DNA from: a virus
Virus record (IMG/VR): IMGVR_UViG_3300005077_000565
Coordinates: 104,159 to 168,158 of that record
Length of the DNA: 64,000 bases
Reading direction: 5' to 3' (one strand)
Position 1 is the stretch's first letter. Every line of letters starts with the position of its first letter. The notes under the pieces were generated by a model that worked only from the letters and a program-made list of their open reading frames with translations, did no database searches and was not told the origin of the DNA. A program made the translations under genes and the position numbers. This document shows, in pieces, positions 2,947 through 61,194 of the stretch.

Positions 2947-3191
2947 ATTACAAACTCATCTCGATCAATCCAGTAATGCTTTACTACAGGTTCTCCGGGA
3001 CCAGTAATCCAACACTCACCGTGATAGGCCAGTCGGCCCCACAGTGTTTTTCCTGTTAAGTAACACTGTTTAGGAAGCCAGCAGAATTTTAACCTCCACC
3101 ATTTTGCTCGATTCAGTCCCCAATCTTCTGACGGTGGACTACATTGTACATCACTTTCGAATGAGTTATCTAGTGGCATCATGTGCCCCAT
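2928..3191 (-). CDS. hypothetical protein
   Basis: Trp-rich 87 aa ORF overlapping the queE stop. Confidence 0.55.
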   Translation of the reverse strand: MGHMMPLDNSFESDVQCSPPSEDWGLNRAKWWRLKFCWLPKQCYLTGKTLWGRLAYHGECWITGPGEPVVKHYWIDRDEFVIWQLKK

Positions 3192-4060
3192 GCATTCTTA
3201 TACAAAGGTACCTGAAGTCTATCGCTGTAGCGTAGTCCGTACTTAGTGGCAAGTTCGGCCACCTGACGATTGTTCATTGAGTAAACACTTTCAACACCGC
3301 CCACGGGCATAAGATATACAGGACCAGTAAAACCATTGGCGCGATAGACATCCACCGCCGCCAGTGCTTCTTCGGCATCCTGTGCTGTGGCAATTACAAA
3401 CTTCAAATATGTATAACCATATTCTTCATATTCACAGACTACATCGGGTTGAATTGCTTCGTGTTGTGCTTCACCACTGCAACTGAGCTTGGCACTGACA
3501 CTGAAAGTAATACTGTTCACGCCACGTCCCAGGTCAATACCGCCATTATGGTGCCACTCACGATGAATCCAAGTTTTGAAATCATCTGTGAGCTGTTGCG
3601 TGCCATTGGTTTCAAATGTTAGTTCTTTTAGACTACGCATTTTAGGATGCTCGAGTAATTCAGGATACGCACGTTGCCAACCTAACAGTGGTTCACCACC
3701 AGTGATAACCAAGTGCTCGTCTCGCCATTCTTTGTAGGGCAATGTTTCGACAATCTGCTCGGCTAGATCAGCAGTGTCAATCATTGGGCTCAGGTCCTTA
3801 AATTCAGGATAGACTGCCGCATAACTGTCACAACCAGTGGTGACCAGAGGTAATTCATTGTAGTTGTTGTATTTTTCGATATTATTAATAACCGCCAGCA
3901 CTTCGGGATTATGCGACTCGCCAGCAGGAACATCGCTACGCCCAAATCCACGACATCTAAAGTTACAACCAAAAGTGCGCAGGAATACGCTGGGAACACC
4001 CATGTAGCGTCCCTCACCCTGGATTGAATAAAATAATTCTGAAACTTTAATTTTGCTCAT
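3179..4060 (-). CDS. queE: 7-carboxy-7-deazaguanine synthase (QueE-type radical SAM)
   Basis: ELFYSIQGEG, VFLRTFGCNFRC...GCDS, VITGGEP, FETNGT, RLQ motifs. Start adjusted to MSKIKVSE at 4060. Confidence 0.85.
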   Translation of the reverse strand: MSKIKVSELFYSIQGEGRYMGVPSVFLRTFGCNFRCRGFGRSDVPAGESHNPEVLAVINNIEKYNNYNELPLVTTGCDSYAAVYPEFKDLSPMIDTADLAEQIVETLPYKEWRDEHLVITGGEPLLGWQRAYPELLEHPKMRSLKELTFETNGTQQLTDDFKTWIHREWHHNGGIDLGRGVNSITFSVSAKLSCSGEAQHEAIQPDVVCEYEEYGYTYLKFVIATAQDAEEALAAVDVYRANGFTGPVYLMPVGGVESVYSMNNRQVAELATKYGLRYSDRLQVPLYKNAWGT

Positions 4061-4100
4061 GATAAATTGTTGTGTTGCAAATCTTGACAATAATAGATTT

Positions 4101-4131: not shown

Positions 4132-4317
4132 TTATTTTTTCTTGATCAGAGACCAAGTACCGTCCTGATTGTCATTCCACTCAATGACATCACCGACATC
4201 CCAGCCGGCAATTTGTAGTGCTTCGTCAGGGATCTGTAAAAATAACTCACCAGACTCTGGATCTTCTTGTACATCAATAGTCCAGTGTTTTGAGTCCTGT
4301 GATTTTAAATTACTCAT
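4132..4317 (-). CDS. AbrB/MazE-like small protein
   Basis: LQIPDEALQIAGWDVGDVIEW pattern. Start adjusted to MSNLK at 4317. Confidence 0.6.
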   Translation of the reverse strand: MSNLKSQDSKHWTIDVQEDPESGELFLQIPDEALQIAGWDVGDVIEWNDNQDGTWSLIKKK

Positions 4318-4732
4318 TATTTTTCCTTCGATCTGCAACACGGTTGCGCAGATCACCGGAACTAAAACGATGATCACGCTTGTTGAAATATAAATCAATG
4401 TCGCGTTTACGGCAGATATCTTTGCCAGTAAAATCCTTGTCACGATATTCTTCACCTAGAATCCTGACATCTATATGATACATACTGAGAATGTCCTCTA
4501 GGTCCTGCTCGGTGACATAGGGGATAATTTCGTCAACGTACCCCACGGCCTTGAGTTGTGTGTAGCGCTCGACTATAGTTTGTATAGGAGAATTTTTAGA
4601 CGGGCGATCTATACTGGGGTCTACTTGTAGCCCGCAAATTAAATAATCGCATTGACTCTTGGCATCGCGCAACATTTGTACGTGCCCGGCATGCAAGAGG
4701 TCAAAAGCAGAGCAGGTAAAACCAACCTTCAT
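4310..4732 (-). CDS. cytidylyltransferase-family nucleotidyltransferase (TagD/RfaE-like)
   Basis: AFDLLHAGH (HxGH), ER and RFSS motifs. Confidence 0.85.
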   Translation of the reverse strand: MKVGFTCSAFDLLHAGHVQMLRDAKSQCDYLICGLQVDPSIDRPSKNSPIQTIVERYTQLKAVGYVDEIIPYVTEQDLEDILSMYHIDVRILGEEYRDKDFTGKDICRKRDIDLYFNKRDHRFSSGDLRNRVADRRKNNE

Positions 4733-4968
4733 TTATTTCCCTCGATGATTTTTAATAATTTTAAATTTAGAACAAAGTTTTCCACCAACAGATGTGTAAT
4801 TACTGCTTTGAGTACAGTGATATCTTCGTCCATTTCAATTACGTGCCCGGCCATCAATTGGTATGCAGTGTGTTCGTCGACTGCAAGATCAGCCCAGTCT
4901 ATAGGGTCAGCACGTTCAGACTCTAGAGCTAGTTCTACGATGTCATTGACTGTGGGTTTACCATTCAT
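4729..4968 (-). CDS. hypothetical protein
   Basis: DPIDW...LLVENFVLNLKL. Start adjusted to MNGKP. Confidence 0.6.
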   Translation of the reverse strand: MNGKPTVNDIVELALESERADPIDWADLAVDEHTAYQLMAGHVIEMDEDITVLKAVITHLLVENFVLNLKLLKIIEGNK

Positions 4969-6304
4969 ACCAAAACTCCTTAAATTCCGGGCATGCTTCA
5001 AGTATACTGGTTTTCCTTACAGCGTCAAGAGCACCAACATGTCGCCGCGCCAGTTTTCTAAGTTCAACTACATTGTCGGGCTCGGGCTCCTGTAGTGTAC
5101 GTTCAATGATCGACCATTGACTGGGCCAGCCAGCCCGCCCGGATCGATCTCCACCCTGTGTATATTTTTCATGATTTGGCAACGAGAAAATATAAGAACG
5201 CAAAGATTCCAGCAGTGCTAGGCGATATTCCATTGGCAGTACCTTGACTTGGAAATGCTCGGGCATTCTTAATATGCTTGACATTGTAATATGACCGGGT
5301 ATCCCTGTAGATTCAAACCACTCAATTAGTTCAGCAAGTCCTGCCACCGTATACATACTGACTGTGGCATTTATGTTTAGGCCAATGTTTGGCTTCACTG
5401 TGCTGATGTAATGTTTTATTTGTTCTATATTTGCGTGAATGTTCGCCCAACGTGTGCCGTTTCTGGCCCATTCGGCCCGAGCACCAGTGCAGTCTATACT
5501 GGCACCAATGCCGATATAATTAAATTTAGACCAGTATTGATTCAATATATCAATGTTTTGATAATTTAATTTCAGCAAATTAGTATTGTAGGACAACATA
5601 CAATCAAATCTCTGATGCTCTGCTAGCAGATCCAAAATTTCGTAATGCAGGCGACTGATCATTGGTTCGCCGCCGGCAAAATATATTTCCTGAATAGTTT
5701 CTATATTATCTAACACTGACTGTCTGATATTCACTAACCCCTGATCTGAAACATTTAACACAGCACCGTCAGTATTTGCCGCCTTTATCGGTGCCACTGG
5801 ATAATCCCGCTTAAACCCAAAATTATCAAGAGCTTCCTGTTGTATCATGCTACTATATCCCGGAGAGCACATCACACATTTCATATTGCATAGATTCGTG
5901 TTGCGTACATCCCAGTATATCAGCGGTGTGTCTATAGAGACTGCACCAGTCTCATCATAGTCCAGTGATACTAGACTGCTGGAGAATTTTTCATTGGTCT
6001 GCATTCGATAACTACTGCCAATTTGTCGCTCCATGTCCCAGCATGTTTTACAGATTGAATTTTCAACACCGGAAATCATGTCGCGTCTTAGTGACTTCCA
6101 GACGCCACTGTTCCTGGCTGATATAATATTGTTTTTGTTGATGTTTATAGATTCTAAATCATCACTGTCTAGTTTATACCGATTATCGAATACTACACCT
6201 GCAGTATGGCAACAGGGTAAAAATTCACCGCCAGGCAGAACATGCGCACCCTGCCAGGCACGCACACATATTTTATTATTTCCAGGTAGCTTGTCGTACT
6301 GCAT
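4958..6304 (-). CDS. radical SAM protein with N-terminal Twitch/SPASM-like Cys cluster
   Basis: NLCNMKCVMC (CxxxCxxC), FAGGEP, N-terminal C..PCC..CKTC. Confidence 0.85.
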   Translation of the reverse strand: MQYDKLPGNNKICVRAWQGAHVLPGGEFLPCCHTAGVVFDNRYKLDSDDLESININKNNIISARNSGVWKSLRRDMISGVENSICKTCWDMERQIGSSYRMQTNEKFSSSLVSLDYDETGAVSIDTPLIYWDVRNTNLCNMKCVMCSPGYSSMIQQEALDNFGFKRDYPVAPIKAANTDGAVLNVSDQGLVNIRQSVLDNIETIQEIYFAGGEPMISRLHYEILDLLAEHQRFDCMLSYNTNLLKLNYQNIDILNQYWSKFNYIGIGASIDCTGARAEWARNGTRWANIHANIEQIKHYISTVKPNIGLNINATVSMYTVAGLAELIEWFESTGIPGHITMSSILRMPEHFQVKVLPMEYRLALLESLRSYIFSLPNHEKYTQGGDRSGRAGWPSQWSIIERTLQEPEPDNVVELRKLARRHVGALDAVRKTSILEACPEFKEFWYEW

Positions 6305-7668
6305 CACCAAGTATCCCAGAACTCATTGAATTCCGGACATGCTTTGAGAATACTAGTGTTTCTCATGGAATCCAGTGATGTTATGTACATTTTAGCACGT
6401 GCACGCAATTCTGAAACATTATCAGGTTCTGGTGATTCCATTATCTTACGTAACAAATCCCACTGATCCGGCCATTTAGTTGCAGTATTAGTCTTGCCAC
6501 TACTGGTATATCTGCGTTTGCGTTCTGGTTCCAGTGTTACAATAAAGCTATCTAACTCGTGCATTAGTCGACGTCGATATTCCAGTGGTAATACAGTGAT
6601 CTGATAAAAATTAGGAAACTGCAAGAAGTTGGTAATTGTTACATTACCATTAAACTGATGAGTTTCGCACCATTCGATGAGTTGTCGTAGTCCCGCAACA
6701 GTGTACATACTTAGCGTTACGTTTAACCCCATGTCAATACCGTTGTTTCCTGAATTCACTGCCTGCATAATTCTAGTAACATTTCGATCAATAACATCCC
6801 ACTTGGTGCCGGCTCTGGCCCACTCAGCACGAGCTCCAACTGCATCTAGACTACCACGTAGTATAATTTTATCGAATTTGTTCCAATATTCAGTGATCAC
6901 ATCCTTGCCAAATTGATTTAGCTTTAATAAGTTGCTAGTATAAGTAAGTCTACAATCAGTTCTATTGGCGGCCAGCAATATATCCAATATGTCGTAGTGT
7001 GTCTGATTGATCAATGGCTCACCACCGGCGAAATATATTTCTTTAGTGATATCGACATTTTTCTTTAAATGTGTGATAATTTCGTTTTTTCCGAAATCAC
7101 CAATATCGATTACTGCAGATATATTACCCCTAGTATCTGGATACGGGGGTTTGAAGTAATTAATTTTGTTTTCTTTATGTGCTTCTATAGTTTCTTGACA
7201 AAGCAAACTACTATAACCAGGTGAACACATAATACACTTCATATTACATAGGTTAGTGTCTCGTATATCCCAGTAGGAAATTTCATCAGTGTCTAGGGTA
7301 CCGTCTGCATGATAATCAATTTCGTGCACAGTTTCTGAATGTTCAAAATTCGCCTGAATTCGATGACTGCCACCATGGGAATTTTCTAGATCCCAGCAGG
7401 ACTTACAAATTGGATTTTGAACTCCATTAATTAAATCTTTTCTAAGTTGTTGCCAGACGTTGTGGTTTCTAATAGATGTAAGGTTGTTCTTGGATATGTT
7501 TATTTCATCCTGAACTTGTCTAGTAGTCAGTTCCTGACTCATTGATTTTACATGTATTGCTGAACTAGTAAAGCAACAGGGTAGTACATGCCCGTCGGGT
7601 ACTATATGCGCACCTCGCCAGGCCCGGACGCAGATTTTATTATTTTTCGGTAATTCTGAATATTTCAT
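6304..7668 (-). CDS. radical SAM protein, tandem paralogue
   Basis: NLCNMKCIMC, FAGGEP, N-terminal PCC/CKSC; clearly similar to its neighbour. Confidence 0.85.
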   Translation of the reverse strand: MKYSELPKNNKICVRAWRGAHIVPDGHVLPCCFTSSAIHVKSMSQELTTRQVQDEINISKNNLTSIRNHNVWQQLRKDLINGVQNPICKSCWDLENSHGGSHRIQANFEHSETVHEIDYHADGTLDTDEISYWDIRDTNLCNMKCIMCSPGYSSLLCQETIEAHKENKINYFKPPYPDTRGNISAVIDIGDFGKNEIITHLKKNVDITKEIYFAGGEPLINQTHYDILDILLAANRTDCRLTYTSNLLKLNQFGKDVITEYWNKFDKIILRGSLDAVGARAEWARAGTKWDVIDRNVTRIMQAVNSGNNGIDMGLNVTLSMYTVAGLRQLIEWCETHQFNGNVTITNFLQFPNFYQITVLPLEYRRRLMHELDSFIVTLEPERKRRYTSSGKTNTATKWPDQWDLLRKIMESPEPDNVSELRARAKMYITSLDSMRNTSILKACPEFNEFWDTW

Positions 7669-8243
7669 TTTGGGCTCCAATGTACATTGCATCTGGGTTC
7701 GTATACGCCAGTACTACCCACAAGCAGCCGATCCCCGACTTCGGAAACTCGATAAGTTTTTGTGGCATCTCGGCCGCATACTGTACAAACTGCTTTAATT
7801 TTTTCAACAGTGTCGGCCAGGCCCATGAGTAGTGATGTCGTTTCAAAAGGTTCGCCTCGACTATCCTGATCTAAGCCGCCGACAACTACGTTTACGCCGG
7901 AGTTTAGCCATTGTGTTATGTGCCTGACAGTCTCATGAGTATCTAAAAATTGAACCTCATCAAGAAACACCGTGTGATAGTTATAGGGCATGATCTTGTA
8001 TTTCTCATCGATCTCTTTAAAAGAAGTAAAGCTCACTGATGGATAACTTAGTTTATTGTGGGTTACAATGTGATCTTCACTGTATCGATCGTCACGTGCT
8101 GGTTTTAATACCAGCACACGCTGACGCTGGTGATCCAACCAGAGTACACGTTTCAGCAGGCTACTAGTTTTACCGGCGTACATGGGTCCACAGTATACTT
8201 CTAGTGTTCCGCGAACGACTTCGTATTTTTTATTTTCTGCCAT
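7665..8243 (-). CDS. tdk: thymidine kinase
   Basis: GPMYAGKT P-loop, DEVQF, Zn-binding CTVC...RC. Confidence 0.92.
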   Translation of the reverse strand: MAENKKYEVVRGTLEVYCGPMYAGKTSSLLKRVLWLDHQRQRVLVLKPARDDRYSEDHIVTHNKLSYPSVSFTSFKEIDEKYKIMPYNYHTVFLDEVQFLDTHETVRHITQWLNSGVNVVVGGLDQDSRGEPFETTSLLMGLADTVEKIKAVCTVCGRDATKTYRVSEVGDRLLVGSTGVYEPRCNVHWSPK

Positions 8244-9156: not shown

Positions 9157-9861
9157 TTACCTCGGAGCAAATTCTTGTTGCATTTTAATATTGTCGAAGA
9201 ATTCTTTCTTCGTACCGGCATCGGAATAAAAGCTACCCTTGAGCACAGTGGTCTGAGTCAAACTACTATGTGCCATGATACCACGATTCTCGCAACACCC
9301 ATGGGTGGCCTGAATATAGACACCTAGGTTTTTTGCCCCGGTCGCACGCTCAATTTCTCGAGCAATATCGTTGGCTAATTCTTCCTGCAGAGTTCCTCGA
9401 CGTGCACACCACTGTGCGATACGTGTATACTTGCTCAGTCCAATAAGTTTATCAGCGGCAATAATACCAATATAGGCAACACCATTAACGGGCTGGTGAT
9501 GATGGCTACACATACTGCGAATTTCACTGCGAACAACTAACATACCCTCGTACCGATCAGTGGAATCGTTTGGAAATGCCGTTGCACTGGGAGCAGGATC
9601 ATAGCGTCCACTCATGATCTCGTTAAAATACATCTTGGCCAAACGGCGTGCTGTACCGTGACTGTTGGGATCATTTTCTCGATCAATCAGGAGATGATCC
9701 AGTACTAGTTCGAACGCACCAGTGGCTTCATCAATGAGTTTGTGTTTGATGTCCGGTGTGATGTATTCGCTGATGTTATCACCGGCCCAGAATCGTTTGT
9801 TATCCTGCTTCATGCGCTCACGAATCGCCTGAGCTAGGTTTTTTTCGGAAGTATTTCCCAT
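9157..9861 (-). CDS. folE: GTP cyclohydrolase I
   Basis: SMCSHH, GLSKYTR, LQEEL, HGCCENRG. Confidence 0.95.
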   Translation of the reverse strand: MGNTSEKNLAQAIRERMKQDNKRFWAGDNISEYITPDIKHKLIDEATGAFELVLDHLLIDRENDPNSHGTARRLAKMYFNEIMSGRYDPAPSATAFPNDSTDRYEGMLVVRSEIRSMCSHHHQPVNGVAYIGIIAADKLIGLSKYTRIAQWCARRGTLQEELANDIAREIERATGAKNLGVYIQATHGCCENRGIMAHSSLTQTTVLKGSFYSDAGTKKEFFDNIKMQQEFAPR

Positions 9862-9882: not shown

Positions 9883-10956
9883 TTATTTCAAAATGTTATT
9901 AATCATAACAGTACTATTTAGATAATTGTCAATCAAAATCTGCTGTTGTCGGCGGATACTGTCCTGATATTTTTCTATATTATTAATGCGTTCACTGATA
10001 AAGTCAACGATATTTTGCCTATTAGTACGATAGGCGTCCAAACTGGAGGTCCACTCTGCGGGGTATTTAAACTCCGGCAGATACATTTCATGATAACTGG
10101 CGCGATCTGGTACGATTGGTACTGCCCCGGTCAAGACTGCTTCCATGACACTGATGCCTAGATTTTCATGTAGTGCACAACTAAAAATAGCGGCACTCTC
10201 GCCCATGACACGATAGTAATCGGCCTTGTTCAGTGACATCTTCTGTGTGATGACCATGTCGAAAGATTTAGCTAAATCTTCTGCAATCTCTGGTTGTTTG
10301 TCGGCGTTGTATCGATGAGGCCACATGACACGACGCTTCTTTTCAGTATTCTGATAGGGCGTCAACTGATCCACAATTAGTTCATGTGGCTGACCACTAC
10401 GAACTGCACGGCCATGGAATTCTGGCAGAATATTCAAATTCTTTAGGAACATGTCCTTGTGGAAATCTGTGGCGTAATAGTTATAGTCACTGGCATAAAA
10501 CCAACTACGTTCAGCCTCCCAGGGCCAGGGCTTCTTCATTTTGTATCCCAGGATGTCTGTGGGATCATAGGCGCCAGCATGCCAGATACTGTGAATTTCC
10601 ACTGGGATATCCAGCAGATCACTCATGTATTTGATGGGTGTAATTACAAAGTTCCAGGCGTCAGTCACTAAAAATTTATCACCAGGGCGAATTCGCCCCT
10701 GGCTGAACCATTTGGAAATTTCCAGGGCCTGTGACGCTTTATAGACGTTGGTGGCACCGAAGTCCAGGAATGCGCCACTGGATGTTTTATCCTCGATGCC
10801 GGCACCGTAGACTGTTACTACATCATAGCTCAGTCCGCGACGCTGAATCTCACATTCTAAAATTTTAGGAATATTATCGTACCACTGACGTGTGTAACGC
10901 TGATCAATTGGTTCAATGGGTACAATATAAATTGTGTTATTTGCCATAGTTTTCAT
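9883..10956 (-). CDS. GT-B glycosyltransferase (Glycos_transf_1-like; QTMAN/GTDC1-like motifs)
   Basis: WPHRYNADKQPE, EX7E motif HENLGISVMEA, PIVPDRASYHEMY. Confidence 0.8.
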   Translation of the reverse strand: MKTMANNTIYIVPIEPIDQRYTRQWYDNIPKILECEIQRRGLSYDVVTVYGAGIEDKTSSGAFLDFGATNVYKASQALEISKWFSQGRIRPGDKFLVTDAWNFVITPIKYMSDLLDIPVEIHSIWHAGAYDPTDILGYKMKKPWPWEAERSWFYASDYNYYATDFHKDMFLKNLNILPEFHGRAVRSGQPHELIVDQLTPYQNTEKKRRVMWPHRYNADKQPEIAEDLAKSFDMVITQKMSLNKADYYRVMGESAAIFSCALHENLGISVMEAVLTGAVPIVPDRASYHEMYLPEFKYPAEWTSSLDAYRTNRQNIVDFISERINNIEKYQDSIRRQQQILIDNYLNSTVMINNILK

Positions 10957-11722
10957 CTACACCTTGTCGTTCAATATCTGATTCAATGCAATCATCACCA
11001 TATTGTATTTCAACAACCCTGCAGGGCACGTCGAAGGGATTGGTGAGTTGATGCCATTCACCAACAAGTATAACATGAGAACGGTGTTTATTTAACTCTA
11101 TTGCTGGTAAAAGATAGCCATTGGCAGTCTGTGAATTTAGAATACTAGCACCCTCACTGACAATCCAGTATTCGTTTCGCTTATTGTGCCGTTGCATGCT
11201 TAACTTCTGGCCGGGATCTACAGTAATTTCCTTGACTTTCATTCCTGGTACTTCGTGCAATACACGGTAGTAGCCCCAGGGGCGATGTGTTTTTGGTGCC
11301 TTCCATTCCTGAAGAATCCAGCTGGAACTGTTCTTTTTGTCTTCGCCACCGACTCCAAACACAAACTCCAGATTGTCATCTTGAATATCCATTTCTGGAA
11401 TATTAGTCTTGGTTCGATCACCACCATTGGCAAAGATGATTCGGTCCTGTGGATAGCTCTGCCGAACCATACGAATTGCATCCTTGGCAGACCCGTCATC
11501 ATCATTAAATGTAATGACAAAGTCTACTCCGGTGATGTTCTTGACAATTTCACATCGCTCGGAAGACGGCATAAACGGAGCACCCTTTTTACGAGTCAAC
11601 CAAGGGTCGCTGTTAACACCCACAACTAGAATATCTCCTAGTTTTTTTGCTGCCTTGAAGTACGCAATATGCCCACTATGCAGTGGGTCAAATCCTCCAG
11701 TAATTAATACCACTTTTTTCAT
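10937..11722 (-). CDS. nucleotidyltransferase (HxGH) fused to a type II mannose-6-phosphate isomerase-like cupin
   Basis: GGFDPLHSGH and ANGGDR, followed by RPWGYY...LSMQRH..RNEYW...WHQL..P...EIQYG...ESDIER. Confidence 0.85.
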   Translation of the reverse strand: MKKVVLITGGFDPLHSGHIAYFKAAKKLGDILVVGVNSDPWLTRKKGAPFMPSSERCEIVKNITGVDFVITFNDDDGSAKDAIRMVRQSYPQDRIIFANGGDRTKTNIPEMDIQDDNLEFVFGVGGEDKKNSSSWILQEWKAPKTHRPWGYYRVLHEVPGMKVKEITVDPGQKLSMQRHNKRNEYWIVSEGASILNSQTANGYLLPAIELNKHRSHVILVGEWHQLTNPFDVPCRVVEIQYGDDCIESDIERQGVDENYGK

Positions 11723-11724
11723 TG

Positions 11725-13233
11725 TTATTCTCCGAGATTTTCTAAGAATTCTTCAGCCGCGTCTTCCTGTTCCGGGGACATTTCGTCAGCCTCACCAATA
11801 TATTGATCTTCAACTTCAAACAGGCAGTTAAAACTGTCAGTGGAACTGGTCAAAGACTTAGAGCCGTTGAAGTTAGCCAACATTGGTGCGGCCTCGTCCA
11901 GCATCTGCATGGGTGTCTCGCTACGGAATAGCTCGTCAATAAACTGTGTCATGTAGATGATATTTCTGGGAACATAAGGACTGAACTGCTCTTCTTTACT
12001 GCCAGATTTAAGTTTACGCCAGTGACGATGATTGGTGGTCACAGTGGACGATACTACGTCAGTCAGTGCATTCGCACGTTGAACACTTTCAATGTGCTGA
12101 TATACATTGTGTGCCATGAGCAAGAAATAACTGAAACTATCCCAGCTGGTTTTGCCTTCTTTACCGACCTTGTTGAGCATGCCGGGTTTGTAGTGGCAGA
12201 TATCGCCCAGTGTCAGACGCTCTGCGATGGGCCCACCGTAGGGGAAGGGAATAGTACTACCCGACAGCGCCTTGTTATCAAACGCACGATCCATGACATA
12301 ACCAAATCTATCAGACTTGTGCACGTGCTGTGTATACATGGTGCCGTTGGCAGTGGCCAGGAATGGACTAGCACAGTCAAACATAACTTCAATGTCAGAG
12401 TTTACATGCTCACGTAACGCACGTTTGATGGCAGTATAGGCCACGGCCCACTCTAGGCGACTGATACCTAGATAGTGTAGTAGATCTCGTTTACCACGCT
12501 CCAGCTGATGATCATCACGCATTTTGATCAGTGTGCGTAACACGATATTAATGTCGTTCTTGGCACTACCTCCGAAGGCAAAACCGTCTAGATCATGATG
12601 CTTCATGTGCTCGTACCAGTATTCGGCTTCAGCCCAGTTACGGCCCTGCATGACGTTTAGGTACTTGGTCTGCCACTTGCGATTACGTTTAAACCACTCT
12701 ACGTTGAAATCAGTGAATTCCAGACATTGATTAAAACTAGTGATACCGGTACGTTTACTGAATGTAGGGTCGGCAGCCAGAGTGGGGATATCCAGAATCA
12801 TTGAGTAATCACTGGTGTGCTCCAGCCAGTTCAAGATTGTATGACGTAGGCTGTCATCAGTTTTAAAGTTGGGCCAGTCGCACTGAATAACGCCCTTGAT
12901 GATCTGGAACCCACCGCTGTCACCCAGCATGAACGTATTTTTGCGATCGCGTTGCTGGACCATGGCGTCGTCAACATCAGCCTTGTTTAAATTAAGCTGA
13001 GCGTGGCCAGCTGAATACAACCCCCATTTGTAGGTAAAGTACCCGGCATCCTGATTCAGAAAGTTGCAACCTTCAATGCCGTTTTCAAATCCCTGTGGGA
13101 TTCTTTCCTGCGGCACAGCCACAGGATTGGCACGTTGCCGCGCAATGTAGTTATTGTAAAACGTACTGATACTAGGCAGAAAGACTGCATAGTCGCGGTT
13201 ACGTTCAGTTAGATTAATACGTGTGGCAGACAT
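11725..13233 (-). CDS. dpdA: TGT-fold guanine transglycosylase (DpdA-like)
   Basis: LGDSGGFQ, MILD, VMQG, GFAFGG, LHYLG, MFDCASP and HN motifs in TGT order; sits in a deazaguanine cluster. Confidence 0.72.
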   Translation of the reverse strand: MSATRINLTERNRDYAVFLPSISTFYNNYIARQRANPVAVPQERIPQGFENGIEGCNFLNQDAGYFTYKWGLYSAGHAQLNLNKADVDDAMVQQRDRKNTFMLGDSGGFQIIKGVIQCDWPNFKTDDSLRHTILNWLEHTSDYSMILDIPTLAADPTFSKRTGITSFNQCLEFTDFNVEWFKRNRKWQTKYLNVMQGRNWAEAEYWYEHMKHHDLDGFAFGGSAKNDINIVLRTLIKMRDDHQLERGKRDLLHYLGISRLEWAVAYTAIKRALREHVNSDIEVMFDCASPFLATANGTMYTQHVHKSDRFGYVMDRAFDNKALSGSTIPFPYGGPIAERLTLGDICHYKPGMLNKVGKEGKTSWDSFSYFLLMAHNVYQHIESVQRANALTDVVSSTVTTNHRHWRKLKSGSKEEQFSPYVPRNIIYMTQFIDELFRSETPMQMLDEAAPMLANFNGSKSLTSSTDSFNCLFEVEDQYIGEADEMSPEQEDAAEEFLENLGE

Positions 13234-13242
13234 TTACATTCC

Positions 13243-13989
13243 TTAGACAGTCAAAGCTGGTAGAATGTAGTCGTATTTCCCAATCCCACTGTCAACGCTG
13301 ATCTGAAGAGCACCACGACGGCTGATCTGCATCACGCAAGTACCGCTCATGCCCAGTTTAAGAATAGCCAGAACCTGTGTCAGTGGCCAAGAGTAGCCTT
13401 CATTCAAGTCACCGTCTACGTTGGTGGCAAACGTTCTACGACCAGTATAAGATCCATCAGCTGCACCCACTGTGATGATTAAATTACCGCCTTCAGTTTT
13501 AACTGTAAAGTTGGGTTCAATGCCACCATAGATACCAGCAACCTGTGTCAATTCGCTGACCTTGGCTTTGGTGGGCTGGAATGTAACGTCCCACTCAACA
13601 CCCTTGAACTTGACAGTCTGTAGTGTCTGATCGATGATTTCCTTGCTCATGAAGCGATAGCGGTCAGTGTTGCCGGCGGAATCCTTAAACAGCAGATGAT
13701 CAGGAGATTCAACTCCGTTGCGTTCACGCTTTACCACGGTGACACTGGAATCCTCTCCACTGTAGTTGGGTAGTTTGCTCACGCCACTCAGGAAGGGTAG
13801 ATTCCCTAGGCCAAATTCCCCAACAAAGTCGGGTTCAGCGTTGTGTAGCTTTGCTTTAAGAATAACCGTGCGCTCACTGTCCATGGCATCCAGTAAAGTT
13901 TCGTCGTCAGTACCAGTGACCTTGACATTTTCAATAAAGCCTAGACCAGCAGTATGTTTCACGATATCAGCAATAACGTCTTTCATCAA
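13243..13989 (-). CDS. putative DNA polymerase sliding clamp (gp45/PCNA-like)
   Basis: 248 aa two-domain size, C-terminal YDYILPA; polB and clamp loader are in the window. Confidence 0.65.
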   Translation of the reverse strand: MMKDVIADIVKHTAGLGFIENVKVTGTDDETLLDAMDSERTVILKAKLHNAEPDFVGEFGLGNLPFLSGVSKLPNYSGEDSSVTVVKRERNGVESPDHLLFKDSAGNTDRYRFMSKEIIDQTLQTVKFKGVEWDVTFQPTKAKVSELTQVAGIYGGIEPNFTVKTEGGNLIITVGAADGSYTGRRTFATNVDGDLNEGYSWPLTQVLAILKLGMSGTCVMQISRRGALQISVDSGIGKYDYILPALTV

Positions 13990-14094: not shown

Positions 14095-14403
14095 TCACTT
14101 GTTTCTGTAATAGCCGCCGTTGGTCCAGGGAAACTGGAATGTACCCACGTGAATTTTTAATTTCTTAGGGCTACGGTCAGCACTAAATTTAATATTCACA
14201 TCGTAGGTGATGGCAGTTTCGCGATCAAAACTGTAGATGCTGAATTCACGAATCTTACCCTCGGCTCTGAGGTCGCTGAGGTAAGCGGCAAAAAGTTTAT
14301 AAACTGGGCCACTCTGGCGTTGTTCCAGTACGCCGTCCCAGGGCTCGATGATCTTTAGAAGATCGTATTTTACATCATTAATGTTCATGTAATGACTTGA
14401 CAT
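14095..14403 (-). CDS. hypothetical protein
   Basis: Start adjusted to MSSHYM, just after the upstream stop. Confidence 0.65.
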   Translation of the reverse strand: MSSHYMNINDVKYDLLKIIEPWDGVLEQRQSGPVYKLFAAYLSDLRAEGKIREFSIYSFDRETAITYDVNIKFSADRSPKKLKIHVGTFQFPWTNGGYYRNK

Positions 14404-14404
14404 A

Positions 14405-14785
14405 TTATGCCTCAAACTTAACAATTGCACCATTTTCATTATCTTCGCTGACAGAAATAGTCATACGTCGGCCAGGATAACGATCGTTGATCGAAGTTGC
14501 TAGATCTTCTGCGATCATTTCACAAGATTTGTGGTTCAGCACCAGCGTACCTTGATCGTACAGTCGCTCCATCCAGCGTTTGAATTGAATGAATTCCACA
14601 TCGCGGTCGTCATGAAATACTTCAAGTTCAACACGAAAGTGAAAAATATGACGATGTGGATATGCTAGAAAGCTAACATCATCCCAATCACCAGTGGCCA
14701 ATTTAGGATCAGTCTCGGCTGCGGGATATCGGTGGATACCTTCTTTCTGAAACGTAACCCAAATTTTTGTCTTGGTTTTTTTCAT
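14405..14785 (-). CDS. QueD-paralogous T-fold protein, DpdL-like (putative CDG decarboxylase)
   Basis: EGIH, LAYPHRHIF (LxxxHRHxF), SCEMIA, VSEDNENG; deazaguanine context. Confidence 0.65.
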   Translation of the reverse strand: MKKTKTKIWVTFQKEGIHRYPAAETDPKLATGDWDDVSFLAYPHRHIFHFRVELEVFHDDRDVEFIQFKRWMERLYDQGTLVLNHKSCEMIAEDLATSINDRYPGRRMTISVSEDNENGAIVKFEA

Positions 14786-14789
14786 ATTA

Positions 14790-14954
14790 TTATTCAACTG
14801 CTAGTTTTTTTTCTAGACGCTGCATGATCTGTAGAATTTCCCACAGTTTCCAGTCAATTGACTTTGCAAGCTCCATGAGCTGCTCAGCGGCGTCGCGTTT
14901 ATCTTGTTCTTCATCAGGTACCTGATCCTCTACAAGACGAATTTTTTTAACCAT
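14790..14954 (-). CDS. small hypothetical protein (54 aa, IDWKLWE)
   Basis: Below the ORF-track cutoff. GGAGA SD; fills the gap exactly. Confidence 0.7.
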   Translation of the reverse strand: MVKKIRLVEDQVPDEEQDKRDAAEQLMELAKSIDWKLWEILQIMQRLEKKLAVE

Positions 14955-15188: not shown

Positions 15189-17831
15189 TCAACCAAAATC
15201 AAATAAATCACTGAAGGTATTCTTTTCACTGGCACTCATTAGGTCCCAGTTCATAACGCCCAGGAGGTTGTCAATTTTCTGTGTAATGATGGCATCCTCC
15301 ATGGCCTCGTCGTCAAAGGGCAAGTCCTTGAACCATTGCGGTATTCGTTTTTCGTCGGTGGGTATACCGATACTGGTCATTCCCAGTGGGTTTGATTTGA
15401 GTTTGCACACAATAGTTTTCATACCATCAGTGATCTCCATGCTATAGGAATCACTGTTCATCTTGCGTAGACGGTTATAGTTGATGGCAGCCAGAGCGTG
15501 TCCAACACCACACTTACCGGTCTTTTCGTAGATTTTGGTGTGATTGGTTAGATTGTTCACACGCTTGGGTGTGCCCTTTTCCCAGCTGGGCATCTGACGG
15601 AATGGTTTACGGAACTCTTTGATGCGTTCAATAACACTGCGTTCGCCCTGCCCGGTCAGTGTCATAACCAGCAATTCATTTAGGAAATCCTGTATGTATT
15701 TGGGTGTGTCACTGCGTTTAAGGTCCAGACCCATGGCTTTGATCTTTCCAGGTTTACCTTCCTGATCTTCACGATAGCCTTCGTTATCATATACTAGGAT
15801 AGCATAACGTTTTTTAGTAATGAAGATACCGGCTAGACCTACAATTTCTCGACCAGCGGCAATAATTTTACCTAGCTCAGCGGGGCAATTGTGACCCTGA
15901 TTCATATATTGACTAAATGTATCGTTGGCAGCTTCACAGACTGCGTCGTAATATTTTACAACACTGTCACGAGTCCATTCTAGTTCACCGCGTTGAATTT
16001 GGTCCTTGAGTACTGGGTATGCGCTGAAATAACAAGAGTCAGTGTCGCCGTAGATAATACTGCGTCCCGTGTGATTATATTCACCATCAATGATGCGATT
16101 GACTTCAGCCGCCATGTGTCGAGCAATACAACGGCCAGTCAGTGTAGTACTCTGCCCTAGACGTTGATCAAAAAAGCGACAACCGGCATTAAGTAGAGCA
16201 CCGTATAGACTGTTTAGGTTAATCTTTTTAACCAGCTGACGCTTGTCCCAGAATGCATATTGTTTATCATCAACACCCTTGAAGCTCTTGGCTTTTTTCT
16301 GTAGTTCTTTACGTTCAGCGTACCAGCGTTCTAGTAGACCAGGAATCACACCCTGTACATCATGACGGAAGATTGTGGCATTGGCACTCAAGATCCAGGG
16401 CTGGCCGCTTAAAAACACTAGATCATATATTTCAGCCCCGGTGGCCTGAATACTAGAGCCATCTTCAAAATCAACTACAAGAATAGTCGAACGATCCTTG
16501 TCCATGATTAGCTCATACTCTGGACAGGCAAAACGACCTTCCCAGGCTTCAGACACCGTTTTATGGCTGGCCAAAAGTTCTTCAGTCAGCGTTTGTCGCA
16601 CCTGGCCCACAATGGTTTCAGTGCTCATGTTGCCACTTCTGAGAATCGACGGGTACAAGCTGTTCAAGTCCATGCTGCCAATCCACTCGTGCATGCCTTT
16701 GACTGGTGTAGCCACGTATGCACCAGCTGCCTGCGTGCTGCCTTCATGACTGCGCTTGTCTGGAACTTGCATGCCTCGACGATGTGCTTCGTTGATAATA
16801 GCCTGTTCAGTCTGAGCCACGGCACCCATGGTGGTCTGCAACAGCACGGTGTTGGCGTGCGCCAGGACGTTGGCTAGATCAATGAACTGAAGTTTTTTGT
16901 CTAGTTTAACCAGCAAGTCCACGTCCTGACGGTTATAGCCGATAAACTTTTCAAAGTCATTGTTATATAACTGGTCCAGTGTACCTTCGTATTCTACTTT
17001 ATGTTCTTTGAGTTCGTATTCGGCAATGGCATCTAGACTGTAGCTATGCATTTCATGGTAAGTATACTTGCGATACAGTTCCAGATAGTCCAGGTGTACA
17101 CGCCCTACAGTTTCATAGGTTTCCTGAATCTTACCAAATTTTTCATATTCTTTGCGCTTGGGGTACTGATCCCAGAGGCAGAATTTTCTAGTATATTCTT
17201 TGCCTAGAACACGAGCAACTCGATTGACCAGATAGGGCACGTCGAACCCCTCACTGTTCCATCCGCTGATGACGTCAGCATCATCAATCAGCTCCAGGAA
17301 TGTGGTCAGTAGATCTTCTTCGGACTCCATGAGCAGAGTGTCAGGGAATTTGTCTACAATGGCTTGCGCCTGATCGGCAGTTAATGTTTTTGGCGCTCGT
17401 ACCAGACAGATAGTGCGCTCCAGCCAATTCAAATGAACTGCTACTGCAGTCACTGGGTTAAAGGGGTCGCTGGGATCAGCAAACCCTAGTTCTTTGTTGA
17501 AGTCAACCTCAATGTCGAAAAATACAATGTGTAGGTCTGGTGCGTCGGCATTTAGATAATTTTCCTCAATACAACGGAATACTGGATTAATATCGCTCTC
17601 GTAGAGTTGCTTGTGGCTATATATTTTCTTCTCACGCTGAAAAATCTTGCCATTAGTAGTAACCACACGTGTCAGTGGCTCACCCCAGATACTTTTAAAT
17701 TTTCCCTTGGGGTCGGGATAGTAGAATACATAGCGTGCTGGGAATTGCACATATTTTCTAACACCATCGCGGCGTTCCACAATATTGATCACATCACGAT
17801 TGCGATCAATAATACCATCTACATAGCTCAT
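15189..17831 (-). CDS. DNA polymerase, family B (T4 gp43-like)
   Basis: Exonuclease motifs FDIEV and GWNSEGFD; polymerase motifs DLNSLYPS, KINLNSLYG, YGDTDS, KKRY. Confidence 0.97.
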   Translation of the reverse strand: MSYVDGIIDRNRDVINIVERRDGVRKYVQFPARYVFYYPDPKGKFKSIWGEPLTRVVTTNGKIFQREKKIYSHKQLYESDINPVFRCIEENYLNADAPDLHIVFFDIEVDFNKELGFADPSDPFNPVTAVAVHLNWLERTICLVRAPKTLTADQAQAIVDKFPDTLLMESEEDLLTTFLELIDDADVISGWNSEGFDVPYLVNRVARVLGKEYTRKFCLWDQYPKRKEYEKFGKIQETYETVGRVHLDYLELYRKYTYHEMHSYSLDAIAEYELKEHKVEYEGTLDQLYNNDFEKFIGYNRQDVDLLVKLDKKLQFIDLANVLAHANTVLLQTTMGAVAQTEQAIINEAHRRGMQVPDKRSHEGSTQAAGAYVATPVKGMHEWIGSMDLNSLYPSILRSGNMSTETIVGQVRQTLTEELLASHKTVSEAWEGRFACPEYELIMDKDRSTILVVDFEDGSSIQATGAEIYDLVFLSGQPWILSANATIFRHDVQGVIPGLLERWYAERKELQKKAKSFKGVDDKQYAFWDKRQLVKKINLNSLYGALLNAGCRFFDQRLGQSTTLTGRCIARHMAAEVNRIIDGEYNHTGRSIIYGDTDSCYFSAYPVLKDQIQRGELEWTRDSVVKYYDAVCEAANDTFSQYMNQGHNCPAELGKIIAAGREIVGLAGIFITKKRYAILVYDNEGYREDQEGKPGKIKAMGLDLKRSDTPKYIQDFLNELLVMTLTGQGERSVIERIKEFRKPFRQMPSWEKGTPKRVNNLTNHTKIYEKTGKCGVGHALAAINYNRLRKMNSDSYSMEITDGMKTIVCKLKSNPLGMTSIGIPTDEKRIPQWFKDLPFDDEAMEDAIITQKIDNLLGVMNWDLMSASEKNTFSDLFDFG

Positions 17832-37090: not shown

Positions 37091-37828
37091 TCAATGAATA
37101 TTTATCTTTTCAACTTCTGATATCAGCATTGCTTGCTGGTCAGTAACTGGGCTAGTACCACACATAAGTTTTATCTGTAGATAATCTACCTCGTCTGTTA
37201 GATATACAGTGCAACGATCCCAGGCGCTGACTCGGTAGTTTCGATTATTGGTCCCGTATCGTCGTCCATGCAAACCAAGCACCCTCTCGAAATTACGACT
37301 TAATTTGTAATCAGACTCTCCAGATTCTAAAATGTCTGCAATTTGTAGAGCACCAGTTCCTACAAAGTCAGCATTGGCCAGGTAGGTGAGTTTATATCGA
37401 TATTTTTTGTGGAAGAGATCCTTCCTCACTGATATTTTGGTATTATTTTTAATCTGCTCGGCATGATGTTCATTAACTGGCCCTGCCACGTAGGTCAATA
37501 TGTGTCGATATCGATCTAGTAGATATTTGATAACATCAATGTCATTGATGAATACGCTGAAATTTACTTCGCGCCGCAGACGATAGTCAATTTTATTCTC
37601 CAGAAGATAGTCGGTTATTTCTGTGTGTAGTTTTTTCAAACGATAATATTGCTGCCAGCCCACGGTGTCTTCATGATGTTTATAAAGTCCGGAACTCCAG
37701 ACATTTATGAATTCAAACGCTAGGCAGAAAGAATATCGACGATAGAACAACCTTTCACTGACGTTATAGGTTGTTCCCGGCTCAGTCAGACGTTTGATGT
37801 CATTTATACACAATGCTGACTTGGTCAT
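37091..37828 (-). CDS. hypothetical protein
   Basis: 245 aa; two LF...Y repeats. Confidence 0.6.
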   Translation of the reverse strand: MTKSALCINDIKRLTEPGTTYNVSERLFYRRYSFCLAFEFINVWSSGLYKHHEDTVGWQQYYRLKKLHTEITDYLLENKIDYRLRREVNFSVFINDIDVIKYLLDRYRHILTYVAGPVNEHHAEQIKNNTKISVRKDLFHKKYRYKLTYLANADFVGTGALQIADILESGESDYKLSRNFERVLGLHGRRYGTNNRNYRVSAWDRCTVYLTDEVDYLQIKLMCGTSPVTDQQAMLISEVEKINIH

Positions 37829-40028
37829 CTAGTACATCCAGTTCAATTACGCTGTGCTCAGCTGAATCGAACAGCATTTTTCTAGCCAGCGGCTTCTTGA
37901 TGTTTTCATTGATTTCGCGTGCCATGGGTCTGGCACCCATTGTGGTACTGAATCCTCGCTCACTCAACCAATCCGTAAGTGCCGGAGTCCAGGTTAGTGT
38001 AATACCACGATCCTTGACCATGTATTTGAGCTCTGATAGGAATTTGTCAGTGACACTATTAATGTTTTCACGTGTTAGACGATTAAACTTAACGATGGCA
38101 TCCAGACGATTGCGGAATTCTGGAGCGAAGAAGCTATTTACTGCTTTATCCTGTGCCCGCTCACGCAATCCTGCACCAAAACCAATGGTTTGACGTTCAC
38201 TATCAGCCGCACCCAAGTTGCTGGTCAAAATAACCACAGCGTTCCTAGCACTTACTGTTTTACCATCACTGCTGGTGACCATGCCGTTGTCCATGACCTG
38301 AAGTAATACGTTCAAAACATCTGGGTGCGCTTTTTCAACTTCGTCCAGCAGCAATACACAGTTGGGGGTCTTTTCTAGTTCGTTAATCAGTTGTCCACTG
38401 CCAGTCTTGCCGTCACCGTGGCCAACATAGCCCGGGGGAGCACCAATCAATTTGGCAACAGTATGGCGCTCCTGATATTCGCTCATGTCAAATCTCACCA
38501 ATGTCATGTTCAGCAGTTCGCTCAGTGCCTTGGCGGTTTCAGTTTTACCAACACCCGTGGGTCCAGTAAACAAGTATGAACCAATGGGCTTGTCTTTGGA
38601 TTTAAGGCCGGCTTTGGTGATATAGATGGCATCAGCCAGACGGTGAATCGCCTCGTCCTGCCCAAACACACGTTCTTTTAGTTTTGATTCAATGTCAACC
38701 ATCGCTGATTCACGACGTTTGGGGTTAACGATCGTGTCCAGTGGAATTCTAGCAATCTTGCTGACTTCAAACTTAATGTCGTCTTCAGTGATCACTGACT
38801 TACGAGTCTCACGATCTGTGATTTTCTGACGTGCAAATGCACTGTCAATTACATCAAACGCCTTGTCGGGTAGCTTCTTGTCATGCAGATATAGCACACT
38901 GAGGTCAACTGCGGCACCAACTGCTTCTGCGGTGATTTCCAGACCATGATAGGATTCGTAGGTTGCAATACTTTGTTTGACAATTTCCTTGGCTTCGGCT
39001 GGACTGGGTTCGGGAACATCAATTTTGTAGAAGCGTCGTGCTAGTGCGCGATCCTTTTCAAACTTTTCTCGATATTCTTCGTAGGTTGTTGACCCAATGC
39101 AACGTAGACGTCCTTTTTGCAGGGCGGGTTTCAGCAAGTTTGCCACATCCATGCTACCACTGCCGGCAGATCCAGCGCCCATGATCATGTGAATTTCGTC
39201 GATGAACAGGATAGCATCATCTCGTTTCTCCAGAACATCTAGAATTTCTTTCATGCGTTCTTCAAAGTCGCCACGATATTTTGTACCTGCCAGCAGTGCA
39301 CCAATGTCTAGACTGTAGACCGTGTGTCCTTGAATTGTTTCCGGCACCTCGGCACGAACGATCCTATCAGCCAGGCCTTCAGCGATGGCAGTTTTACCAA
39401 CACCAGAATCGCCAACTAGAATAATATTATTTTTCTTACGACGAGCCAGAGTCTGAACCAATACTTCAATTTCATGATCGCGGCCGATCAGCGGATCCAG
39501 ACGATTGTGTTCTGCTTCTTTGTTTAGATTAATGGTATATTTGTTTAATACTTTGTCTGGGCTACTGCGCTTGCTCTGTTGTTCAGTGCCAGGCTCAATG
39601 ATAGATCCGTTGTCAGTCAGATATTCAATGATGACTTCACGTGTAAGTCCATACTCATTACAGATATGCGCCGCGGTGCTGTTTCGTTCAGCCAAAATAC
39701 TTAGCAATAAATCCACTGAAGTGATATGTTGCCGTCCAGCAAACAATGCCTGTGTGAATGCTCGGTTAAATGTTCGCTCTAGTGTAATTGTCTTCTTGGG
39801 AGAACGAGCTTCCGTGGTTTTAATTTCGTCCAGCTGTGTTGAAATATAATCGAAAGCATGATCACAAATTGATTGAGAATCGCCGCCCATGCCGGTGATT
39901 AGATCAATAACATCCTGGTCTTCGCACACTACACACAGAATGTGTTCCAGTGTTACATATTCGTGCTCTAAATCTTCGGCAATTTTAAATGCTCGTTTCA
40001 CCAGCACTTCAATTCGTTCATTGGACAT
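37800..40028 (-). CDS. clpA: ATP-dependent Clp protease ATPase subunit ClpA
   Basis: Clp-N domain, two AAA modules ([16 protein letters not shown]), FDMSEY, IGF loop; 742 aa with no M-domain. Confidence 0.92.
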
Positions 40029-40039
40029 CTATATACCTT

Positions 40040-57645: not shown

Positions 57646-57648
57646 GAT

Positions 57649-60514: not shown

Positions 60515-60520
60515 CCTAAA

Positions 60521-61189: not shown

Positions 61190-61194
61190 TTATA

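Follow-up and report, generated by a model that had tools for sequence, protein, structure and literature searches.

A candidate phage DNA-hypermodification module in which 7-deazaguanine genes are linked to a glycosyltransferase with a queuosine mannosyltransferase-like donor half

Introduction

Can a phage place a sugar on a 7-deazaguanine in its own DNA? This question is raised by a gene cluster in the virus record IMGVR_UViG_3300005077_000565, where a predicted glycosyltransferase is encoded in an apparent operon with a DpdA-like transglycosylase, a nucleotidyltransferase/cupin fusion and FolE. To our knowledge, the described 7-deazaguanine modifications of DNA all bear small groups (cyano, aminomethyl, amido, carboxy, formyl or methyl) or none, and all known glycosylated DNA bases are pyrimidines. 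Our literature searches found no paper on glycosylated, hexosylated or sugar-bearing deazaguanine in DNA. The stretch that we analyzed, hereafter referred to as the window, comprises 64,000 nucleotides and represents the last 64 kb of a linear viral contig of 168,158 bp. Since this contig is only about 47% complete according to CheckV, the genome of the phage itself is probably much larger. A near-identity DNA search of a phage collection gave no match.

The reading at which we arrive, and to which we assign a probability of roughly 0.55, is that the cluster is a phage DNA-hypermodification module by which a hexose, probably of the mannose type, is added to 7-deazaguanine in the phage DNA. We are more tentative about the specific proposition that guanine in the DNA of these phages is replaced by 7-deazaguanine bearing a mannose-type hexose, which we would place somewhat below even odds.

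Results

Core genes and their arrangement

The genes on which the argument turns are listed below in coordinate order. Family assignments in the window were made with Pfam and NCBIfam.

3179-4090, minus strand: QueE-like radical SAM enzyme (7-carboxy-7-deazaguanine synthase), 303 amino acids (aa) (Radical_SAM, Fer4_12)
4310-4732, minus strand: stand-alone HIGH-motif nucleotidyltransferase, 140 aa (PF01467, E 7.8e-12; TIGR02199, E 3.4e-18)
9157-9861, minus strand: FolE, GTP cyclohydrolase I, 234 aa (PF01227, E 7.8e-37)
9883-10956, minus strand: GT-B glycosyltransferase with a QTMAN-like donor half, 357 aa (model and hhalign)
10937-11722, minus strand: fusion of a nucleotidyltransferase and a phosphomannose isomerase (PMI) cupin, 261 aa (PF01467, PF01050)
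11725-13233, minus strand: DpdA-like enzyme with the predicted fold of tRNA-guanine transglycosylase (TGT), 502 aa (Foldseek of an AlphaFold model)
14405-14797, minus strand: DpdL homologue, 130 aa
49934-50644, minus strand: eukaryotic-type phosphomannomutase family protein (PF03332, E 6.3e-24)
59905-60537, minus strand: canonical QueD/PTPS (PF01242, E 8e-16)

Four of these genes, all on the minus strand, follow one another in the transcription order DpdA-like enzyme, nucleotidyltransferase/cupin fusion, glycosyltransferase and folE. This order and the tight spacing of the genes had been described in an earlier note on this DNA, and both were borne out: the first two genes are separated by 2 nucleotides (nt), the fusion and glycosyltransferase genes overlap by 20 nt, and a gap of 21 nt precedes folE.

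Fold and family of the glycosyltransferase

The 357-aa protein contains the strings WPHRYNADKQPE, KADYYRVM and SCALHENLGISVMEAV..G..P..P....Y.E.Y that the earlier note had quoted for the enzyme. Its model is a GT-B fold composed of two Rossmann-like domains (predicted local distance difference test score, pLDDT, of 95.4), and the structural neighbours of this model are generic retaining GT4, GT5 and GT20 enzymes with Z-scores of up to 26. Among the matches obtained with Foldseek and VIA-align were BshA, PglA, PimA, glycogen synthase and sucrose-phosphate synthase. Tetrahydrobiopterin glucosyltransferase (5zer, Z 20.4) and T4 alpha-glucosyltransferase (1y6f, Z 18.5) match no more closely than generic GT4 enzymes do, and there was no solved QTMAN structure among the matches listed. 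An E-x7-E motif is present in the C-terminal domain, of which E264 is nearly invariant and E272 is invariant in the family.

Searches of Pfam, PHROGs and NCBIfam with the single sequence gave no match, and the sole match returned from the PDB, to the repeat protein 8pjx, was rejected as spurious. The profile of the family gave weak GT4 matches alone against PDB sequences (best 8xsg, E 6.6e-5), and a weak match to Glycos_transf_1 was found in 45 of 58 family members. In fold and feature searches of the ESM Atlas, nearly all of the clusters obtained were viral; a bacterial GT4 cluster appeared once, at rank 30, and none of the clusters was of the QTMAN_N type. The family is large, with 763 clusters at 90% identity and at least 1227 at 50%. 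In one metagenomic PolA-type phage (locus L218, 10582-11679) we observed a second, paralogous glycosyltransferase with 26% identity to the window enzyme, located 2.5 kb downstream of the first and beside a DSGGF protein and FolE, an arrangement suggestive of two sugar transfers in certain phages.

Kinship with QTMAN/GTDC1

A likeness of this enzyme to GTDC1 (QTMAN), the queuosine mannosyltransferase, had been put forward in the earlier note. We evaluated it through bacterial QTMAN_N-family proteins rather than animal GTDC1, the comparison set consisting of bacterial proteins that match Pfam QTMAN_N (PF12038) at E 1e-44 to 1e-53, five of which were aligned. In hhalign, the profile of the phage glycosyltransferase family matched this alignment with a probability of 99.5% (E 5.6e-23) over 266 columns. 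As a control, the phage profile was scored against every long open reading frame (ORF) in a set of 37 loci from bacteria. Ranks one to seven all went to the seven QTMAN_N proteins, with scores of 92-138, whereas the Glycos_transf_1 proteins of these genomes, about 25 in number, reached 41 at best. The reciprocal test gave the same picture, the QTMAN profile scoring members of the phage family at 63-96 and generic GT4 enzymes at 44 or less. Conserved motifs shared by the two families are PHR...(D/E)K.PE, H(E/D)..G(I/L)...(E/D)A and P.RL(S/A)Y.E. The motifs that characterize the C-terminal GT4-type donor domain of QTMAN, HRW..DK.PE, STA.H.F.G....A and P.RL.YPE, could be recognized in the alignments.

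The likeness is confined to one half of the protein. The C-terminal halves of the two families aligned with a probability of 99.7% (E 1.5e-25), whereas the N-terminal halves reached 0.7% (E 0.08). Likewise, PF12038 gave no match in the window enzyme (E up to 10), in 58 members of its family (E up to 0.1) or in a six-frame search of the contig. The suggested similarity thus stands for the C-terminal half and falls for the N-terminal half. In GT-B enzymes the N-terminal half usually binds the acceptor and the C-terminal half the sugar nucleotide. QTMAN, a tRNA-queuosine alpha-mannosyltransferase composed of QTMAN_N and Glycos_transf_1 domains, uses GDP-mannose as its sugar donor and queuosine-34 of tRNA-Asp as its acceptor. 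Judged by these profile comparisons, the donor half of the phage enzyme is specifically related to QTMAN/GTDC1 and not a generic GT4. Proteins with a full QTMAN_N domain (362-374 aa; e.g. L153 and L154, genomes G148 and G145) were observed in 7 of 182 genomes, all belonging to one bacterial class; we know of no description of their function in bacteria.

DpdL and the other 7-deazaguanine genes

DpdL is a QueD/PTPS-like T-fold paralogue that was proposed to be the 7-carboxy-7-deazaguanine decarboxylase of Cellulophaga phage phiST, and its signature LxxxHRHxF replaces the QueD motif CxxxHGH (PMC10516641). By means of the DpdL/DpdA3 system, the DNA of phiST carries plain 2'-deoxy-7-deazaguanosine (dDG) in place of dG (Nucleic Acids Res 2023, PMC10516641). 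The 130-aa DpdL homologue of the window, which was absent from the earlier note's account of the operon, carries the motif LAYPHRHIF that fits this signature (PMC10516641). Residues H48, R49, H50 and F52 are invariant, and tblastn matched the protein to CGPG_00067, the DpdL of phiST, with E 4e-8. The QueE-like enzyme matched the NCBIfam QueE models at about E 1e-12, which is below their cut-offs, and it shares 44% identity with the protein annotated as QueE in phage BUCT-ZZ01. The QueC family had no match on the contig. The presence of a DpdL homologue and a canonical QueD, together with the lack of a QueC match, makes this a gene set of the phiST type.

The sole PP-loop ORF on the contig (87992-89284, outside the window) was considered as QueC and rejected, since it belongs to the Asn_synthase family. 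It encodes a 431-aa protein with the motif SGGKDS, is located in an upstream island of tailoring enzymes, and could amidate a carboxylate. Another observation concerns QueE: a purine phosphoribosyltransferase-like gene is found beside it in two unrelated phages that both possess the glycosyltransferase, namely PAC2 (L002, 9324-9758) and BUCT-ZZ01 (L212, 1084-1545). This gene possibly represents a nucleotide-level branch of the pathway.

A divergent transglycosylase

At the sequence level the 502-aa protein is difficult to place. It matched the Pfam TGT family (PF01702) with 14 bits against a cut-off of 26.3 (E 0.027), so that the gathering score was not reached, and a search of PDB sequences with the profile of its family found no TGT. 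When the family was compared by hhalign with 11 bacterial TGT-family proteins, these ranked first, yet with probabilities of 1-17%. The matter was settled by a fold search with an AlphaFold model built on 52 homologues (pLDDT 87.7). All of the top 50 Foldseek rows were TGT enzymes (bacterial TGT, human QTRT1 and ArcTGT) with E-values from 2.6e-8 to 4e-7, and the protein as modelled is a divergent, DpdA-like base-exchange enzyme of the TGT fold. Residues D105, S106, G107, G108 and Q110 of the DSGGFQ motif and D286, A288 and S289 of the FDCASP motif are invariant in 52 sequences. We take D105 and D286 to be the equivalents of the catalytic Asp102 and Asp280 of the Zymomonas mobilis TGT. The dpdA-like transglycosylase of the earlier note is thus upheld by its fold and its invariant Asp motifs, despite the weak Pfam score.

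The enzyme shares 35% identity with the product of the gene directly upstream of the glycosyltransferase in the PA5oct-group phages. Its comparison with DpdA3 of phiST (CGPG_00065) gave an hhalign probability of 3%, and in tblastn no Cellulophaga or Campylobacter phage was matched. When clustered at 90% identity, the TGT-like family comprises at least 7198 clusters, and none of the 120 listed carried any Pfam domain. From these sequence comparisons, it looks as if the 502-aa enzyme belongs to a separate and very large TGT-like clade.

Linkage of the glycosyltransferase to deazaguanine genes

We analyzed 69 IMG/VR loci encoding a glycosyltransferase with 45-74% identity to the window enzyme. 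Its neighbours included FolE in 65 of these loci, DpdL in 59, a DpdA-like enzyme in 49 and QueE in 41, and many of the missing neighbours fall at contig ends. Among cultured phages, the glycosyltransferase gene is found beside deazaguanine genes in the PA5oct-group Pseudomonas phages, Acidovorax phage ACP17, Xanthomonas phage BUDD (where the neighbouring gene is annotated as queuine tRNA-ribosyltransferase), Burkholderia phage BCSR5, Sinorhizobium phage Phosso and cyanophage BUCT-ZZ01. DpdL is 38-66% identical across six cultured-phage loci that carry the glycosyltransferase. A strong match to the glycosyltransferase coincided with DpdL in 18 of 18 phage records (PA5oct group, ACP17, BUDD, X1, BCSR5, Phosso and BUCT-ZZ01), and ten phage records with DpdL, the phiST group among them, lacked the glycosyltransferase. 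Based on this distribution in sequence records, the glycosyltransferase appears to behave as an optional add-on to the DpdL pathway.

The association extends to distant relatives. In three metagenomic members with 27-30% identity, one of which belongs to a PolA-type phage, a gene with the DpdL motif is located immediately upstream (3/3), and a DSGGF protein is encoded nearby in two of the three. DpdL is the most faithful neighbour of the glycosyltransferase (59/69 metagenomic loci, 18/18 cultured-phage records). The linkage with dpdA that the earlier note implied for related phages was therefore recovered, along with linkage to deazaguanine synthesis genes, in at least seven cultured-phage groups as well as in distant metagenomic members. 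Weak relatives of the glycosyltransferase in the phages PhiXhv, Ep026 and Ep032 have a different context without deazaguanine genes. In Xanthomonas phage PhiXhv-15 (L213, 3663-6897), the relative with 25% identity is accompanied by a GlmS-like aminotransferase and an LmbE-like deacetylase, with no deazaguanine genes within 6 kb, and it may belong to a different sugar-modification system.

Genes for sugar supply

The 261-aa fusion protein combines a HIGH-motif nucleotidyltransferase (PF01467, E 9.5e-16) with a C-terminal MannoseP_isomer cupin (PF01050, E 1.1e-22), and it matches TIGR02199 (RfaE domain II-like) as well as the C-terminus of TIGR01479, which represents the PMI cupin of bifunctional GMP/PMI enzymes. 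The cupin is of the type II PMI kind, and the fusion is predicted to make a nucleoside diphosphate (NDP) sugar of the mannose type. Both the PMI-like cupin and the phosphomannomutase that the earlier note had seen in the window are real, as judged from their E-values of 1.1e-22 (PF01050) and 6.3e-24 (PF03332). We infer that the fusion, the phosphomannomutase and the small nucleotidyltransferase could together convert fructose-6-phosphate to NDP-mannose, in which case a near-complete phage-encoded route to NDP-mannose would adjoin the glycosyltransferase. Since the window holds both the PMI-type cupin/nucleotidyltransferase fusion and a phosphomannomutase, a mannose-type donor is plausible. At some other loci, the direct neighbour of the glycosyltransferase is a PMI-type cupin that stands alone.

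Other genes of the window

The following genes surround the core genes.

4958-6310 and 6304-7692, minus strand: two radical SAM/SPASM proteins, 450 and 462 aa
7665-8243, minus strand: thymidine kinase, 192 aa
8297-8905, minus strand: Vut_1-family membrane protein, 202 aa (PF02592, E 2.5e-25)
13243-13989, minus strand: sliding-clamp-like protein, 248 aa (phrog_12062; 40% identity to genes annotated as PCNA/sliding clamp in PAC2 and Phosso)
14095-14439, minus strand: 114-aa protein of no assigned family
15189-17831, minus strand: PolB-type DNA polymerase, 880 aa

The clamp-like protein is encoded inside the operon and probably stands outside the modification system. Vut_1 is the family of the queuosine-precursor transporter YhhQ, and its gene was found near the glycosyltransferase in just 8 of the 69 IMG/VR loci. 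The radical SAM pair is located between QueE and thymidine kinase, and the SPASM domain is N-terminal to the radical SAM domain in both proteins. Homologues of the pair occur near the glycosyltransferase in just 4 of the 69 related loci, and these proteins could catalyze a further tailoring step that is peculiar to this lineage.

Further away, consecutive genes on the minus strand at 55173-57297 encode a phosphoribosyl pyrophosphate (PRPP) synthetase (317 aa), a MazG-like pyrophosphohydrolase (141 aa) and a 250-aa piece of a UDP-glucose/GDP-mannose dehydrogenase. The C-terminal domain usual in such dehydrogenases gave no match in this piece, which may be incomplete or divided between genes. 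Directly upstream of the trio, at 57316-58011, lie genes for an Fe-S assembly protein and a ferredoxin. The regions 37800-40828 and 60521-61788 encode a ClpB-like protein (742 aa), a DnaJ-like protein (262 aa), ClpP (197 aa) and a membrane protein of the Bax1-inhibitor family. The nearest bacterial relatives of the ClpB-like protein are 40-53% identical and spread over several phyla, so they give no clue to the host.

Discussion

The proposed pathway

In the scheme that we infer, with its DNA target, its sugar, its order of steps and its acceptor atom, FolE, QueD and QueE would turn GTP into 7-carboxy-7-deazaguanine, which would then be processed by the DpdL homologue without QueC, the published proposal for this step being decarboxylation to 7-deazaguanine. 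The divergent TGT-fold enzyme would swap guanine in the phage DNA for that deazaguanine, and the GT-B enzyme would finally add a hexose, probably mannose-configured, to the deazaguanine. This hexose would be drawn from an NDP-sugar provided by the phage PMI-cupin/nucleotidyltransferase fusion and the phosphomannomutase, and the DNA would be protected against restriction by the resulting purine, bulky through its sugar. The central suggestion of the earlier note, a glycosylated deazaguanine in DNA (or tRNA), is in part supported by the kinship of the donor half, the linkage and the sugar genes, with the glycosylation of DNA itself as its conjectural part.

Several observations point to DNA as the probable target. 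The deazaguanine genes lie within the replication module, and no tRNA genes were found on the 168-kb contig. A parallel is offered by PA5oct (Wroclawvirus), where homologues of the transglycosylase and the glycosyltransferase (both with 35% identity) and of DpdL (58%) are encoded in the order DpdA-like enzyme, glycosyltransferase, DpdL, and the virion DNA of this phage is reported to resist restriction enzymes with G in their sites (2025 preprint, PMC12191111). According to the same preprint, a nuclease that senses hypermodified DNA targets PA5oct; the chemical identity of the base was not determined there (PMC12191111). Where the window has the nucleotidyltransferase/cupin fusion, loci of the PA5oct group have an 'epimerase domain' cupin together with a phosphoribosyltransferase.

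The window is also similar to phiST in that both possess FolE, QueD, QueE, a DpdL with LxxxHRHxF and a TGT-like transglycosylase, QueC being absent or not found, and in that these genes adjoin replication genes. In contrast, the phiST cluster contains neither a homologue of the glycosyltransferase nor sugar-activation genes, and its DpdA3 has 259 aa and is not detectably close to the 502-aa enzyme. The end product predicted here would be further decorated. With T4 alpha-glucosyltransferase, which acts on 5-hydroxymethylcytosine, our enzyme shares the proposed post-replicative transfer of a sugar to a modified base by a GT-B protein. However, the structural match is weaker than that of generic GT4 enzymes, there is no sequence similarity, and the modified base would here be a purine analogue. 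The contig encodes a thymidylate synthase homologue that is a canonical ThyA and gives no indication of hydroxymethyl-pyrimidine synthesis, and no hydroxymethylase was found on the contig; nothing thus points to a hydroxymethyl-pyrimidine route that would supply a T4-like acceptor. As for QTMAN/GTDC1, the context of both enzymes, genomic or biochemical, is a 7-deazaguanine base in nucleic acid, and mannose pathway genes lie near the phage glycosyltransferase. The phage enzyme differs in lacking QTMAN_N, in belonging to a family found in phages and in its likely target, DNA rather than tRNA. Moreover, no queuosine-forming genes were found on the contig, so the phage acceptor cannot be the cyclopentenediol of queuosine.

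The acceptor and points that weigh against the proposal

The presence of DpdL and the lack of a QueC match point to a base of the 7-deazaguanine or 7-carboxy-7-deazaguanine type without an obvious hydroxyl, which sharpens the problem of the acceptor. Possible acceptors are the exocyclic N2, a carboxylate, the C7 carbon, or a side chain introduced by an enzyme not yet recognised. If the proposal is correct, the linkage itself would be unusual in such a base, namely an N-glycoside, a C-glycoside or an acyl glycoside. N2-glycosylated 7-deazaguanines do occur as natural products, i.e. huimycin and the dapiramicins.

A number of points weigh against a sugar-bearing deazaguanine in DNA. Neither 7-deazaguanine nor 7-carboxy-7-deazaguanine offers an ordinary hydroxyl acceptor. 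The N-terminal halves of the phage glycosyltransferase and QTMAN are not alike, and since the likeness is limited to the half that usually binds the sugar nucleotide, it says nothing direct about the acceptor; as far as the sequences go, it argues for a shared donor and not for a shared deazaguanine acceptor. The function of DpdL in decarboxylation rests on a published proposal, and expression of dpdL of ACP17 together with its dpdA in Escherichia coli yielded no dDG (PMC10516641). The contig on which QueC was sought is about 47% complete, and QueC or another tailoring gene may be encoded elsewhere. Relatives differ in their sugar-activation genes: a homologue of the fusion lies near the glycosyltransferase in 31 of the 69 loci and at no cultured-phage locus. 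Finally, the genes are located in a replication module, and part of the synteny may therefore be inherited gene order.

Alternative explanations

Inherited gene order is also the basis of the explanation in which the acceptor has nothing to do with deazaguanine and is instead another DNA base, a virion protein or a host surface glycan. The weak relatives in PhiXhv, Ep026 and Ep032, with their GlmS-like and LmbE-like genes and no deazaguanine genes, would fit this explanation, as would the structural matches to many GT4 enzymes with diverse acceptors. Nevertheless, the linkage holds across PolB-type and PolA-type phages, different hosts and glycosyltransferases with 24-30% identity while the surrounding genes change, strong matches among phage records occur only together with DpdL, and no hydroxymethylase was found on the contig. 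We therefore regard an unrelated acceptor as improbable. Host tRNA as the target is an explanation to which we give very little credence. It supposes that the TGT-fold enzyme inserts a deazaguanine into tRNA and that the glycosyltransferase decorates it in the way in which QTMAN decorates queuosine. The fold of the transglycosylase, for which sequence alone cannot tell DNA from RNA, and the QTMAN-like donor half are compatible with this supposition, which is opposed by the lack of tRNA genes on the contig, by the location of the genes between DNA polymerase, clamp and other replication genes, by the absence of the QTMAN_N domain from the glycosyltransferase, and by the restriction resistance of PA5oct virion DNA itself at G sites. 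Furthermore, DNA is what is modified in all DpdL or DpdA systems of phages that have been examined to date (PMC10516641).

The glycosyltransferase might alternatively act on a free small molecule, be it a deazapurine base or a pterin derived from FolE, QueD or DpdL, the product of which would then be inserted by the enlarged TGT-fold enzyme or be kept as a soluble metabolite. The frequent direct adjacency or overlap of the DpdL and glycosyltransferase genes would suit consecutive steps on one small substrate, the N2-glycosides mentioned above are precedents for such a product, and the eukaryotic TGT is able to insert a bulky base. Tetrahydrobiopterin glucosyltransferase (5zer) is, in addition, a GT-B protein of similar size. 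However, with Z 20.4 it is no closer to our model than dozens of generic GT4 enzymes (Z up to 26), which leaves a pterin glycoside pathway with no specific structural support, and we rejected this pathway. QTMAN, the sole characterized relative of the donor half, acts on nucleic acid, and the transglycosylase-bearing relatives have modified DNA (PMC12191111, PMC10516641). Altogether, we consider a small-molecule acceptor unlikely, and we prefer the addition of a hexose to a 7-deazaguanine that has already been placed in the phage DNA.

Implications

If this proposal is correct, the module would produce the first known sugar-bearing purine analogue in any DNA and would represent a new class of DNA hypermodification. 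Since several cultured phages carry the module, the question is directly testable. A sugar on a deazapurine would bear on the escape of phages from restriction enzymes, CRISPR and modification-sensing nucleases. This has a practical side, as phages of the PA5oct group are candidates for therapy. A nuclease of the modification-sensing kind, described in the END nuclease preprint, is reported to target phages of this group (PMC12191111). In view of the very large families in environmental viromes, with at least 1227 glycosyltransferase clusters and at least 7198 TGT-like clusters, the modification could be common in nature, and it could affect how well such phages are sequenced. The queuosine mannosyltransferase family, for its part, gains a prokaryotic-virus relative of its donor domain. 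Because the donor half appears to share ancestry with the animal and bacterial queuosine mannosyltransferase, the decoration of 7-deazaguanines with sugars would span both tRNA and DNA.

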